A stretch of DNA of 60,940 bases, filler included, from Armatimonadota bacterium (GTDB taxonomy: Bacteria; Armatimonadota; Fimbriimonadia; Fimbriimonadales; Fimbriimonadaceae): assembly GCA_031400935.1 (NCBI GenBank). It is 3 parts of 3 records of this genome, joined end to end, with 100 filler letters (N's around TTAATTAATTAA, not from the genome) between each part and the next. Parts side by side here need not be neighbours in the genome. Positions count along the whole stretch, not along the records: positions 47,595 to 60,940 come from JANNQV010000066.1; 2 more parts are not named here. One strand, 5' to 3'. Position 1 is the stretch's first letter; each line of letters starts with the position of its first letter. Made by a program: the position numbers and the translations under genes. The notes below the pieces were generated by a model, which saw only the letters and a program-made list of their open reading frames with translations, was not told where the DNA came from and searched no databases. This document shows positions 21,462 to 52,255 of this stretch, piece by piece.

Positions 21462-21561
21462 NNNNNNNNNNNNNNNNNNNNNNNNNNNNNNNNNNNNNNN
21501 NNNNNTTAATTAATTAANNNNNNNNNNNNNNNNNNNNNNNNNNNNNNNNNNNNNNNNNNNN
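21462..21561. other. Artificial contig linker (N44-TTAATTAATTAA-N44)
   Basis: 100-nt N run with a six-frame stop spacer. Confidence 0.97.
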
Positions 21562-47494: not shown

Positions 47495-47594
47495 NNNNNN
47501 NNNNNNNNNNNNNNNNNNNNNNNNNNNNNNNNNNNNNNTTAATTAATTAANNNNNNNNNNNNNNNNNNNNNNNNNNNNNNNNNNNNNNNNNNNN
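47495..47594. other. Artificial contig linker (N44-TTAATTAATTAA-N44)
   Basis: Same 100-nt spacer as 21462-21561. Confidence 0.97.
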
Positions 47595-49651: not shown

Positions 49652-50527
49652 ATGAAATTGCGAAAATACAAATCAAAGAAAGGTCTTCGAACGACCTTCC
49701 TGGCATCACTGATTGCACTGGCATTGCCGACTTTCGCATGGTTTGAAACCGGCCATATGGTCGTCGCCGAAATTGCGCTACGCCATTTAGAACCAAACAC
49801 TAGGAAACAGGCCCTAGAACTTCTTCAAGAAGCCTATCTTGACGCTCGCACGAACGACTTCCGAACCGCTTCCGTTTGGGCAGACGACCACAAGTCCTCC
49901 GCCGATGCCCACTGGCACTACATAAATTGGTTCTTCAAGGTTGATGGCAGCGATGGTTCTGGCAAGCCTCGCGAAGAAAATGTTGTGTGGGCTATCGAAA
50001 AATTTAGGGCACTTCTATCAGACACTGCAAGCACAAAAGGGCAAAGAGCACAAGCTATGGTTTGGCTGTTGCACTTTGTTGGCGATATTCATCAGCCGAT
50101 GCACTCAGTCGCACGAGAATCTGCCGCTCACCCAACTGGAGATCGCGGTGGAAACGAATTCTCAATCACTTCCCCCGATTCAATCACTCCTCCTGTCCGA
50201 AACCTTCACTTTCTGTGGGATTCTGGTGGCGGTTATTTTCCCAAAGTTGTACGCCCGCTTAACGATGTCGGGCAGCGAACAATTGCTCGCCTGGCCGACG
50301 AATGTGAAAAATCGTTTTCGTGGGACAAAGCCCAAACGGAACTTCATACTTCAGATTCAAATCGTTGGGCAAAGGAGAGCTTTGCTTTAGCGAAAAGCGA
50401 AGCGTACGATCTGAAAGAAGGCGAAGTCCCATCTGAGGCCTATCTCAAGAATTGCCGGGCGATTTCAATGCGAAGAGTGACTCTTGCAGGTTATCGGCTA
50501 GCGGCAGTTCTCAATAAAGCGCTTTAG
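49652..50527 (+). CDS. S1/P1 family nuclease, exported
   Basis: Signal peptide then WFETGH, WADD, WHYIN, HFVGDIHQPMH, LHFLWD, LAGYRLA. Confidence 0.93.
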   Translation: MKLRKYKSKKGLRTTFLASLIALALPTFAWFETGHMVVAEIALRHLEPNTRKQALELLQEAYLDARTNDFRTASVWADDHKSSADAHWHYINWFFKVDGSDGSGKPREENVVWAIEKFRALLSDTASTKGQRAQAMVWLLHFVGDIHQPMHSVARESAAHPTGDRGGNEFSITSPDSITPPVRNLHFLWDSGGGYFPKVVRPLNDVGQRTIARLADECEKSFSWDKAQTELHTSDSNRWAKESFALAKSEAYDLKEGEVPSEAYLKNCRAISMRRVTLAGYRLAAVLNKAL

Positions 50528-51384
50528 CGCTCGATACTCCCAGCTTTTATCGGAAACGGTGGCGAATCGTATTTGAGGTTCAGTTTCAGGTTGCTTTCAT
50601 CGGACTTGCACGAAGCCCAGCCGCCGCCGCCTCAACCGTAAGTCATGGAGCCAGATGCGTTCAAATTGCCCTTCGAATCAAACAATTCATAACCAATTGG
50701 AATCCGTTTGCCGCTTGCATAGATTGAAAGTCCCGAACGGTTCTCACCTGTGATTTCCATGGAAACTTGAACTACGCCCTTCTTTGCCATCAAACCAGAA
50801 TTGACAACTATTTCTGAACTGATATCTAGCCTTGTTTCCTTTCCGGCGTCAACGCGAAACGACTTGATTTCTGGCCCCATTGTCGAAATGTGCCAAACCT
50901 TGCCATCCTGTGCTTTTCTAATAATTCGATAGCCTCGAACCGTGTAGTTCCCTGCTTTTAGGAATCGCTTTGAAGATTTTGCATCTTCCCAAGACAATCG
51001 AAAAACTTTGCCGTCTTCACTAGCAACCAAAATTGCACCATTGGCAAAATCAGTTCGAACCGAACCGAGTCCCGCTCCAGGTTTTGAAAGGGCCAATTCA
51101 GGGATACCCTCTTGAATTGTTTGGAAGTAAGTAATCAGGGCCTCACGGGCCCCCTTTTGCGTATCGCTTCAGGCAGTCTCCCGAACTTGGCCGAGCCAAG
51201 CTCTTTCGGTTTCAAACCGAGTGTCTGGGGGCACATGGCAAGAAGAGCATTTCTTCTTGAACATTTCGCCTGCGTTTGCGAACACCTCGCTACTAGGGGC
51301 ATGATGTTGGGTTGTAGGGGCGGAAAAACCAACGAGGGTAATGCCCGCAATTCCTAAAATCGCAAATCCCAAATGAGCTCGCAT
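50524..51384 (-). CDS. Predicted di-selenocysteine monoheme cytochrome c protein (286 aa; Sec72 = TGA 51169-51171, Sec251 = TGA 50632-50634)
   Basis: One frame from ATG 51384 to TAA 50524, broken only by two TGAs; signal peptide, CSSCH; a similar SECIS-like hairpin after each TGA; the final TAA overlaps the stop of the convergent nuclease. Confidence 0.75.
50602..50618 (-). promoter_or_regulatory. Candidate bacterial SECIS for the second UGA
   Basis: mRNA GGGCUU-[CGUGC]-AAGUCC, loop starts 19 nt after the UGA. Confidence 0.65.
51138..51152 (-). promoter_or_regulatory. Candidate bacterial SECIS for the first UGA
   Basis: mRNA GGGCC-[CGUGA]-GGCCC, loop starts 21 nt after the UGA. Confidence 0.65.
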
Positions 51385-51493
51385 TCCTAAGATTAGCACG
51401 TTGGTCAACGCAATGTCTCGCTTCAATTGCATTTCTGCAAATTTGGAATTTGGTCGGAGATGCAATTCGTCTACAATTCTCTTAGAATCTCTT

Positions 51494-52255
51494 ATGTTGC
51501 GATCCACATTCATTTTCATCCCTGGCGTCGGCCCCACAACCGAACGCGCTCTCTGGAAGCAAGGATTTACCGATTGGACACTCCTGCGAGAGAATTTGAA
51601 AGAAGCGAAGCTTGGAACAGCAAGTATTGACGACGCTAAAAAGTCCATCGACACAGCTGAAAAGATGCTCAGCGAGGGAAATCACCAGTATTTCGCCAAG
51701 AAGTTGGGAATCGCCGAAGCCTGGCGGGCTTGGCCGCATTTCAAGGATTCGATGGTCTATCTCGACATCGAAACCGACGGCGGAATGCGAGGCGAATCGG
51801 TCACGATGATCGGCCTCTATGATGGCAAAGAATTCAAAGCGCTGATTAAAGACGACAGCATCGAGGAATTTAAGGATCTAATAACACACTACAGTATGAT
51901 CGTCACGTTTTTTGGGACAGGATTCGACCTGCCGATGCTTCAAAAACGGTTTTGGGGAATGCAGTTCGACCAAATCCACCTTGACCTTTGCCCGACTCTC
52001 AAACGCCTTGGCTATCGCGGCGGGCTGAAAAAAATCGAGCGTCAGGTCGGAATTTCTCGCGCGGAGGAAACCGACGGTCTTTCAGGCATGGACGCGATTC
52101 ACCTTTGGAATCGGCATTTACGGGGAGATGAATCTGCGCTACCGACTTTAGTCGCTTACAATCGTGAAGACGTAGTGAATCTTGAAAAACTTTCTGAATT
52201 GGCGTATTCGAAACTTGAGGCGACGGTCCGCGGGAGTTTGGGAGTGTTGTGTTAG
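51494..52255 (+). CDS. YprB-like RNase H-fold exonuclease
   Basis: MLRSTFIFIPGVG (HhH-like), YLDIETDG, TFFGTGFDLP, GGLKKIE, YNREDV; ATG 51494 preceded by TAGAAT. Confidence 0.85.
   Translation: MLRSTFIFIPGVGPTTERALWKQGFTDWTLLRENLKEAKLGTASIDDAKKSIDTAEKMLSEGNHQYFAKKLGIAEAWRAWPHFKDSMVYLDIETDGGMRGESVTMIGLYDGKEFKALIKDDSIEEFKDLITHYSMIVTFFGTGFDLPMLQKRFWGMQFDQIHLDLCPTLKRLGYRGGLKKIERQVGISRAEETDGLSGMDAIHLWNRHLRGDESALPTLVAYNREDVVNLEKLSELAYSKLEATVRGSLGVLC

Follow-up and report, generated by a model that had tools for sequence, protein, structure and literature searches.

The window analysed in this work is the whole 60,940-nucleotide stretch of Armatimonadota bacterium DNA (GenBank assembly GCA_031400935.1), which consists of three contigs joined by runs of N (21462-21561 and 47495-47594); it is not one molecule and no feature can be read across the joins. 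The gene in question, a candidate selenoprotein gene read through two in-frame TGA codons, lies on the minus strand and wholly inside the third contig (47595-60940). Its frame of 286 sense codons is opened by the ATG at 51384 and closed by the TAA at 50524-50526, and the sole internal stops are the TGA of codon 72 and the TGA of codon 251, which are about 540 nt apart and each followed by one hairpin (Table 1). An earlier reading made from the DNA alone (the sequence-only reading) had described one frame holding two TGAs and no other stop, split by the open reading frame (ORF) track into a cytochrome stub and a 154-amino-acid (aa) ORF, and ending in a TAA that overlaps the stop of a convergent nuclease gene. 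This description was borne out on all points: in the mechanical ORF list the gene appears as two pieces, an N-terminal stub whose end is at 51169 and, at 50632-51096, an ORF of 154 aa, and the TAA shares 2 nt with the nuclease TAG (50525-50527). The names in the source annotation offer nothing beyond 'hypothetical protein'.

Sixty related genomes were searched with stops read through, and a homologue was found in three of them (G001, 87% identity; G058, 46%; G022, 36%), each with exactly two TGA codons that share the same two alignment columns in 3/3 relatives. Because both are kept in position across relatives down to 36% identity, the paired TGAs are far beyond chance. The best-conserved motifs of the family are those which hold them, WLGQVRET[AS]-TGA-[ST]DTP and [MI]TYG-TGA-GGGGWA, and conserved protein sequence (SDTPxGAREAL and GGGGWA, respectively) starts directly after each TGA, ahead of any possible restart codon. 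The degenerate DNA pattern YG-TGA-GGGGW, in which the second TGA only is fixed, was then scanned over species-representative genomes. It returned 71 loci, of which 35 were true homologues (matching a profile made from the first four sequences at E 1e-37 or better) and 36 were dismissed as chance glycine-rich matches. Judged by the titles of their records, the homologues belong to the Planctomycetota (29), to the Armatimonadota or Fimbriimonadia (5) and to an unclassified genome (1). Although the pattern leaves out the first TGA, 34 of the 35 have it in the aligned column. Three pattern loci that duplicate earlier sequences were counted once, and the gene models assembled for the family number 37, from two phyla. 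The gene is real. The homology which the sequence-only reading expected across both TGAs runs straight through them, with TGA at both positions in all full-length relatives. The sole exception among the 35, L029, holds only the C-terminal ~130 residues of the family, its upstream sequence being unrelated (1561-base contig, 2.9x coverage); a Rieske-like CxH...CxxH was seen there in another frame. Either the low-coverage assembly is chimeric here or the gene has been rearranged.

The residues found at the two positions (site 1, residue 72; site 2, residue 251) were tallied in database proteins. A profile search of 1.84 billion representative proteins gave 608 clusters at 50% identity (E <=1e-3), 265 of them at E <=1e-10 and 43 at E <=1e-30, and the tally covers the 150 best. 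The main class, with 121 clusters, starts after site 1 and ends ..YG, which is the piece a gene caller makes of a gene with two selenocysteine (Sec) codons. Cys is present at site 1 in 14 clusters ending ..YG, in six with an ordinary residue at site 2 (R, P, E, S, S, N) and in four ending elsewhere; three clusters start after site 1 and end elsewhere, one starts after site 1 and has Thr at site 2 (P0146), and one is an N-terminal stub that ends just before site 1 (P0123, ...ETA) and does not reach site 2. An exact stop at ..YG before site 2 is found in 135 of the 150 clusters. The prediction that standard annotation would miss the protein is in agreement with these fragments, most of which are middle pieces.

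Every database homologue covering site 1 has Cys there (24/24), and the alternation of Cys and TGA at this position reads as the classic Sec/Cys signature. The DNA of the Cys-1 subfamily, at both metagenome loci (2/2), carries AYG-TGA-GGGAGA at site 2, with the frame open for 37-43 more codons through a conserved PTGPF and with a hairpin after the TGA. Homologues without Sec at site 2 have lost the motif around it or, in the one case of P0146, have Thr, and the classic pairing of Sec with Cys is limited to site 1. The sequence-only reading had expected Cys or TGA in homologues at both residues, and had counted Trp, Arg, Gly or Ser there as a sign of nonsense mutations. This expectation held at residue 72, where only Cys or Sec occurs, and, as far as the TGA is concerned, at residue 251; it needs one refinement, in that no Cys form was met at 251, where some Sec-free homologues have one of the ordinary residues listed above in a lost motif. 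On all the refuting outcomes that it had named, the result favoured the sequence-only reading.

In a maximum-likelihood tree of 59 sequences, 18 rows make up a Cys-1 clade, apart from another of 41 rows which is mostly Sec/Sec. Sec-free forms are nested in the latter, P0006 being the sister of the Sec/Sec L072 with a support of 99/96, and the topology therefore suggests that Sec has been replaced or lost several times, although several forks are poorly supported. The Armatimonadota members (P0001/P0002/L047, P0003/L041 and P0004) are found in at least three places among the Planctomycetota, and this scattered placement could reflect transfer between phyla or weak resolution. One database cluster, P0047 (642 aa), is a fusion of a ~420-aa N-terminal region without Pfam match to a Cys-1 module ending ..YG, presumably at the Sec-2 TGA.

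The genome of the window (G000) is a 67-contig draft, 95.6% complete. The four components of the Sec machinery for which the sequence-only reading proposed a search are all present: selA (E 2e-115), selB (360 bits with the full-length model, against a curated cut-off of 242; the SelB wing-domain Pfam model PF09106 has no match in this genome), selD (354 bits) and a tRNA-Sec with anticodon TCA, detected by ARAGORN. The selD gene contains 1 in-frame TGA, at SCSG-U-ASK. It lies at G000:C15:155711-156616 (minus strand, locus L006) and is itself a selenoprotein gene, with a hairpin, CUGGG-CCCGA-CCCAG, starting 10 nt after the UGA. All four carrier genomes have selB above the cut-off, and selA is present in G000 and in the other three (G001, G058 and G022). 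Since selA is common in the lineage (41/61 genomes), this co-occurrence with the gene is consistent but weak evidence. TGA also ends 502 of the 1540 ORFs of >=250 aa in G000, and a third, terminating TGA closes 14 of the 37 family gene models. Within one gene, TGA therefore both codes and stops, which fits the prediction of context-dependent Sec decoding.

Both TGAs are followed by a hairpin that resembles a bacterial Sec insertion sequence (SECIS). Their similarity, already noted from the sequence, was seen again, and both hairpins are conserved and covarying in the family (alignments A2 and A3 for hairpins 1 and 2, respectively). The family consensus of hairpin 1 is the same as the window sequence; for hairpin 2 it is GGGCUUC-GGU-GAAGCCC, the window having GGGCUU-CGUGC-AAGUCC. 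In hairpin 1 (32 distinct sequences, 6 pairs), 94.3% of the cells are paired, versus 38-66% when the partner is slid by 1-3 columns; 11 cells are changed on both sides, in 2 pairs, and the covariation score of 0.288, against a shuffled mean of 0.191, is reached by 0 of 500 shuffles. Hairpin 2 (33 distinct sequences, 7 pairs) has 98.3% of its cells paired versus 29-61% for the slid partner, two-sided changes in 20 cells, spread over 4 pairs, and a score of 0.424 against a shuffled mean of 0.271, again reached by 0 of 500 shuffles; the structures of both hairpins were derived from the same, mutually related sequences on which they are scored, which favours them somewhat. The covarying columns include the synonymous third codon positions of Ala82 (column 33 of A2) and Ala257 (column 21 of A3), and the latter covaries with the second position of a Lys/Arg codon. 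Covariation at synonymous third positions therefore points to an RNA structure under selection of its own. The apical loops are located ~21-26 nt downstream of the UGA, with a loop G-U ~25-27 nt from the U of the UGA in both hairpins, a distance that resembles the one in the hairpin after the UGA of the selD gene of G000 and, presumably, the one in the E. coli fdhF SECIS.

The architecture of the encoded protein was examined in an AlphaFold2 model built from a 57-sequence alignment (A4). The model has a mean predicted local distance difference test (pLDDT) score of 91.1 and a predicted template modelling score (pTM) of 0.85. A signal-peptide-like segment is followed by a cytochrome c-like module and by two Ig-like domains (Table 1). 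In the model, the CSSCH motif closes the first helix of the module, and the second helix is followed by the loop T70-A-U72-S-D-T-P and then by helix 77-89. The claim that the first TGA cuts the cytochrome fold before its C-terminal helix is confirmed by this model, since that helix comes after residue 72. Sec251 is placed on a glycine-rich beta-hairpin tip, YG-U-GGGG, with ~35 residues more to the C-terminus. Compared with known structures by VIA-align, the heme module matches the heme domain of cbb3 oxidase CcoP (3mk7_C; Z 5.4, 62 residues aligned, root-mean-square deviation (rmsd) 2.9) and cytochrome c6A (2ce0; Z 5.1, 63 aligned, rmsd 3.2), and a profile search of the PDB matched only the helix-CxxCH region of cytochromes c. 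For the beta-sandwich domains the matches are generic (Z 5-7.2 with VIA-align; TM <=0.27 with Foldseek against the PDB). No fold match exceeds Z 7.2, and SoxY, SoxA and TsdA are absent among the 50 VIA-align matches listed, which is not evidence of absence. P0006, a natural Cys form, gave one 0.75 match in the ESM Atlas, to an unnamed cluster. The cut-offs of Pfam and NCBIfam were not reached by any model, whether the query was the window protein, one of 9 database homologues or one of 9-12 relatives.

In alignment A4, the columns conserved in at least 90% of the 57 sequences are C46, C49, H50, P53, D54, D60, W63, T70, C/U72, R80, L83 and P95, and further downstream G116, L130, W132, G145, Y147, W164, G218, R227, G245 and Y249; no Met and no second His is found among them. 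Class I cytochromes carry a Met ligand in the loop before the last helix. Because no Met or second His is conserved and because residue 72 is located before the last helix, a distal ligand has no conserved candidate other than Cys/Sec72. G000 encodes cytochrome c assembly proteins (three PF01578 matches), and the motif, the fold and these maturation genes together suggest that the protein is exported and that heme is attached to it.

Table 1. Features of the selenoprotein gene and its convergent neighbour; coordinates are those of the window.
Feature	Coordinates	Strand	Basis and remarks
Complete read-through coding sequence	50524..51384	-	286 codons + TAA, two predicted Sec-UGA codons; homology to relatives over full length
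Signal-peptide-like segment MRAHLGFAILGIAGITLVGFSA, codons 1-22	51319..51384	-	By eye: positive N-terminus, hydrophobic core, small-residue end; low pLDDT as expected
Class I cytochrome c-like module, residues ~31-95, helices 32-46, 58-69, 77-89	51100..51294	-	Model, fold matches
CSSCH heme c attachment motif (C46, C49, H50)	51235..51249	-	Nearly invariant in 57-sequence alignment A4
First Sec codon UGA, residue 72, RETA-U-SDT	51169..51171	-	TGA aligned in 3/3 relatives and 34/35 pattern homologues; Cys in 24/24 database homologues covering it
SECIS-like hairpin 1, GGGGCC / loop CGUGA / GGCCCU, starting 16 nt after UGA	51137..51153	-	Alignment A2
Two Ig-like beta-sandwich domains, residues ~101-190 and 189-286	50527..51084	-	Model; generic matches only
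Second Sec codon UGA, residue 251, MTYG-U-GGGGWA, loop between strands 241-246 and 254-260	50632..50634	-	Alignment of relatives, model, clusters ending ..YG
SECIS-like hairpin 2, GGGCUU(C) / loop / (C)AAGUCC, starting 13 nt after UGA	50602..50618	-	Alignment A3
S1/P1 nuclease, convergent neighbour	49652..50527	+	Pfam PF02265, E 2.5e-54; context only, outside the system

In the phylum of the window, 401 sampled genomes were searched with the family profile. The full two-TGA form occurs in two of them (G000 and G379), and 19 matches to the beta region only were found in a further 17 genomes, with exactly one TGA in 19/19. Eleven cytochrome-less genes from ten loci (L096-L105) encode an N-terminal signal or anchor and the beta domains, with no cytochrome module. 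All eleven carry the motif [FK]YG-U-GG[TSA]C[TR]YSG or HYG-U-GFTC, in which a Cys stands four residues after Sec, and in all eleven the TGA is followed at the same distance by a hairpin, for example GUAUUCC-GGU-GGAAUAC. No Pfam or NCBIfam model was above cut-off for these genes. Examples are L101:1301-2011:-, L096:1236-2450:- and L096:2320-3090:-, and one genome has two tandem copies. These cytochrome-less YG-U-x3-C proteins are a second uncatalogued selenoprotein group in the phylum of the window and, as judged from the sequences, the proteins that lack the heme module with Cys/Sec72 are exactly those that have the putative local resolving Cys.

The sequence-only reading had also proposed a read check at both codons. 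In the contig of a second sample (run X2, same study, depth ~24) the gene is spanned, with both TGAs unchanged and two base differences elsewhere; only short pieces of the locus were found in runs X3 and X4. One difference, at 51146, replaces the nearly invariant R80 by His and at the same time hits a loop G of hairpin 1 that is otherwise invariant; the other, at 51317, changes P23 to Leu near the predicted end of the signal peptide. Upstream of the gene, a divergent neighbour at 51401-52255 (plus strand) encodes a protein of the RNase_H_2 superfamily (PF13482) with weak helix-hairpin-helix matches, and its start is 17 nt from the selenoprotein ATG, leaving a very short shared promoter region. 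Pfam analysis of 90 flanking ORFs from 31 loci did not reveal any family-wide operon. In one Planctomycetota clade (L025:2417-3685:+, L033:2698-3975:+, L062:1710-2987:+ and L088:2671-3972:+), the next gene downstream, on the same strand, encodes a protein of ~425 aa whose C-terminal part is a Redoxin/AhpC-TSA domain, a weak sign of coupling to thiol redox chemistry; a reprolysin-like metallopeptidase precedes the selenoprotein gene in three of the four loci (L033, L062 and L088).

The pieces delivered by gene callers could be taken at face value. With both TGAs acting as true stops, a split gene or reinitiation would yield a cytochrome stub of 71 aa and a separate middle protein, possibly with a short peptide from the C-terminal end; gene callers give exactly these pieces, as the 121 middle fragments and the single stub P0123 among the 150 best clusters illustrate, and a TTG start is located 24 codons past the first TGA. 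We nevertheless hold this highly improbable, for strong conservation begins directly after each TGA, before any start codon, the third piece has no start codon, the site-1 Cys homologues are continuous proteins, and the model is one folded unit (pTM 0.85) in which the first TGA would cut the cytochrome fold before its last helix; the conserved, covarying hairpins after both TGAs likewise argue against true stops. Two in-frame stops are also the usual signature of decay, and in a 67-contig draft they could come from sequencing or assembly errors, or from two nonsense mutations that made a pseudogene of a former Cys or Trp gene. The chance of this is next to nil: two phyla contribute 37 gene models that have both TGAs, with identities as low as ~30%, the frame has no other stop or frameshift, and the assembly of the second sample (depth ~24) has the same TGAs, while copies of one contaminant are excluded by identities of 27-87% among the relatives.

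If the gene is translated through both UGAs, a standard amino acid could still be inserted there, either because near-cognate suppression puts in Trp, Cys or Arg or because TGA has been reassigned throughout the lineage. Sec is deduced at both positions, and site 2 has no Cys counterpart and a Thr in P0146, which leaves some room for this explanation. It is very unlikely all the same, given that TGA ends about a third of the long ORFs of G000 and 14/37 family genes, which excludes reassignment, that selA and selB are present in all four carrier genomes tested, that the hairpin geometry and G-U loops match the Sec site of the selD gene of G000, and that site 1 alternates between Cys and TGA, as is standard for Sec. 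A protein with two Sec might also be real and its CxxCH motif bind no heme, the motif being a thiol or metal site of a thiol/selenol oxidoreductase or of a metal(loid)-binding protein. The failure of cytochrome models of Pfam and NCBIfam to reach cut-off, the modest fold match and the lack of a conserved Met or second His are compatible with such a protein. Set against it are the near invariance of the C, C and H of the motif in 57 sequences, its position where helix 1 ends, which is also that of the motif in class I cytochromes, the match of the three-helix module to cytochrome c domains, the export-like N-terminus and the presence of cytochrome c maturation genes; we regard a heme-free protein as unlikely.

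The locus is thus very probably an intact gene for an exported protein of ~286 aa (~264 aa when mature), in which both UGAs are decoded as Sec and which would have a heme-linked redox role. This supports the sequence-only reading of a 286-aa exported heme c selenoprotein with two Sec, in which heme binding and selenium incorporation are deduced. Several results weigh against it. The fold matches of the heme module (Z 5.1-5.4) are modest, in a range that may reflect a common helical arrangement only, and the best cytochrome models are far below cut-off (PF14495, E 0.06 and 13 bits versus 27; TorC, 16 bits versus 478). Hairpin 1 overlaps the conserved ARxAL motif, so that its conservation is in part protein-driven; its two innermost pairs never vary, double changes are seen in 2/6 pairs only, and R80H in the second sample also hits the invariant G of its loop. 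The Rfam covariance models gave no match at E up to 10 between window positions 50400 and 51500, a blank that says little, bacterial SECIS elements being short and diverse. No Cys at site 2 was found in the 150 best clusters; a scan of 185,579 species genomes with a Cys-back-translated pattern, which is unable to detect Sec forms (the TGA-containing DNA pattern was used for those), gave 92 stretches and 0 relatives, and a targeted search with the C-terminal region (residues 185-286) returned one match, a truncated fragment, and no Cys form. Most selenoprotein families have Cys forms, according to the deep-Sep paper (PMC12013277). The locus was not found in any RNA run of the sequencing-run listing, so that selenium incorporation, translation and transcription are predictions, and the absence of a conserved operon leaves no pointer to the substrate.

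In the mechanism which we propose for this two-Sec cytochrome, SelB bound to Sec-tRNA(Sec) would bind the hairpin of each UGA at its apical loop containing the G-U. The product would be a periplasmic redox protein with one heme covalently bound on C46/C49/H50 of a minimal class I cytochrome c module, and Sec251, on its flexible tip, would be the primary reactive selenol across the whole superfamily. Comparison of the architectures suggests a role of ligand or partner for residue 72 (Sec here, Cys in other subfamilies), which would be situated beside or on the heme iron and would be the resolving partner of Sec251, linking selenium chemistry to one-electron transfer via the heme. Residues 72 and 251 would then form a selenenylsulfide or diselenide couple wired to the heme, residue 72 possibly serving also as distal iron ligand; this couple is proposed because the heme-less forms have a local U-x3-C and the heme forms, without local Cys, always have Cys/Sec72. 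A bolder version is possible and, on balance, doubtful. Sec72 would be the distal axial ligand, making this the first natural selenolate-ligated cytochrome c, and would exchange with Sec251 as a diselenide (a selenenylsulfide in the Cys-1 subfamily), so that selenium switches ligation and redox state; the YG-U beta-sandwich would define a new exported superfamily of the Planctomycetota and Armatimonadota, with a Sec that has no Cys equivalent; candidate substrates in the periplasm would include peroxides, polysulfide, thiosulfate and species of selenium or of another metalloid.

The family is absent from the selenoprotein tables of two catalogues, Table 1 of PMC9312934 (2022, 87 entries) and Table 1 of PMC13188914 (2026, 119 families/subfamilies), and term searches of deep-Sep (PMC12013277) and BSepDB (PMC13326102) gave no mention of cytochrome, heme, Planctomycetes or Armatimonadota. 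In the S9 Table of a 2016 Planctomycetes genome paper, 13 selenoprotein candidates are listed, each split in two and none a cytochrome; one 'hypothetical' with a Cys homologue might conceivably be a Cys-1/Sec-2 member. Searches of open-access full text on selenoproteins with Armatimonadota or Planctomycetota, and on selenocysteine with heme ligands, gave no description of the family. It is a genuine, widespread selenoprotein family, absent from the catalogues checked, which combines a predicted mono-heme cytochrome c module with Ig-like domains and has two Sec codons. New beyond the sequence-only reading are the absence of Cys at site 2, the subfamilies with Cys-1/Sec-2 or without Sec, and the relatives that lack the cytochrome and carry YG-U-x3-C, which hint at a mechanism. 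Selenoprotein finders which require Cys homologues would miss such a family, a limitation stated by the deep-Sep authors themselves (PMC12013277). The family is widespread and systematically mis-annotated as two or three fragments, and it would combine covalent heme and Sec in a small exported protein. A Sec position without Cys counterpart is rare and suggests a chemistry in which sulfur cannot replace selenium, and models of bacterial SECIS elements gain, in the paired hairpins, new examples from distant lineages. The small size of the protein allows its expression, which makes selenolate-heme c ligation, or a heme-coupled diselenide switch, directly testable.

Glycine-flanked reactive Cys or Sec residues on flexible arms are known from the GGCGG C-terminus of SoxY and the GCUG C-terminus of thioredoxin reductase. 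The family resembles them in having a potentially reactive chalcogen amid glycines, on an exposed Ig-like tip, which would suit a mobile carrier or shuttle role; it differs from them in that the motif is internal, in a beta-hairpin loop and not C-terminal, and in that it has no SoxY Pfam match and no SoxY among the 50 fold matches listed. For the heme module, SoxAX, a His/Cys-ligated c-type cytochrome of sulfur metabolism, is a possible functional analogue. TsdA may be another, with a c-type heme and a conserved Cys (Cys/Sec here) as ligand or nucleophile; the heme of TsdA has Cys-/His ligation according to PMC9562282. Unlike the present family, SoxAX and TsdA are without Sec and without YG-U beta-sandwich, and no sequence or family-level similarity to them was detected with Pfam, NCBIfam or the PDB profile search.

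As in the SelB-decoded bacterial selenoproteins FdhA and SelD, each UGA is followed within ~13-16 nt by a hairpin with a G-U loop, the machinery is present and Sec alternates with Cys at site 1; unlike in proteins of this type, two distant Sec codons have their own hairpins and site 2 is without Cys counterpart. The vast majority of selenoprotein families have a single Sec, as summarized in PMC13188914. The heme-related entries of the two catalogues are limited to ExtKL (NF040886, multiheme), the GSU2204 CXXCH family (NF041027) and the octaheme tetrathionate reductase family (TIGR04315) (PMC9312934, PMC13188914). These share with the family described here a selenoprotein with CXXCH, but they are multiheme or outer-membrane beta-barrel proteins with one Sec each, whereas one CxxCH, two Sec and Ig-like domains are found here; their three models did not match the window protein P0001 (E up to 1) or P0003, P0004 and L094 (E up to 0.1). 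A chemical parallel to the proposed role of residue 72 is a native Sec-ligated cytochrome P450 of ncCYP subfamily M, reported as the first of its kind; its heme is ligated by Sec, encoded by UGA, in place of Cys, and it was itself found as a truncated database entry (preprint PMC11703216). That enzyme has a b-type heme and the P450 fold, unlike the protein of the window, with its c-type CxxCH module and second Sec, for which ligation of the iron by Sec is a hypothesis. With this b-type heme enzyme, there is one precedent in nature for the ligation of heme by a selenolate.

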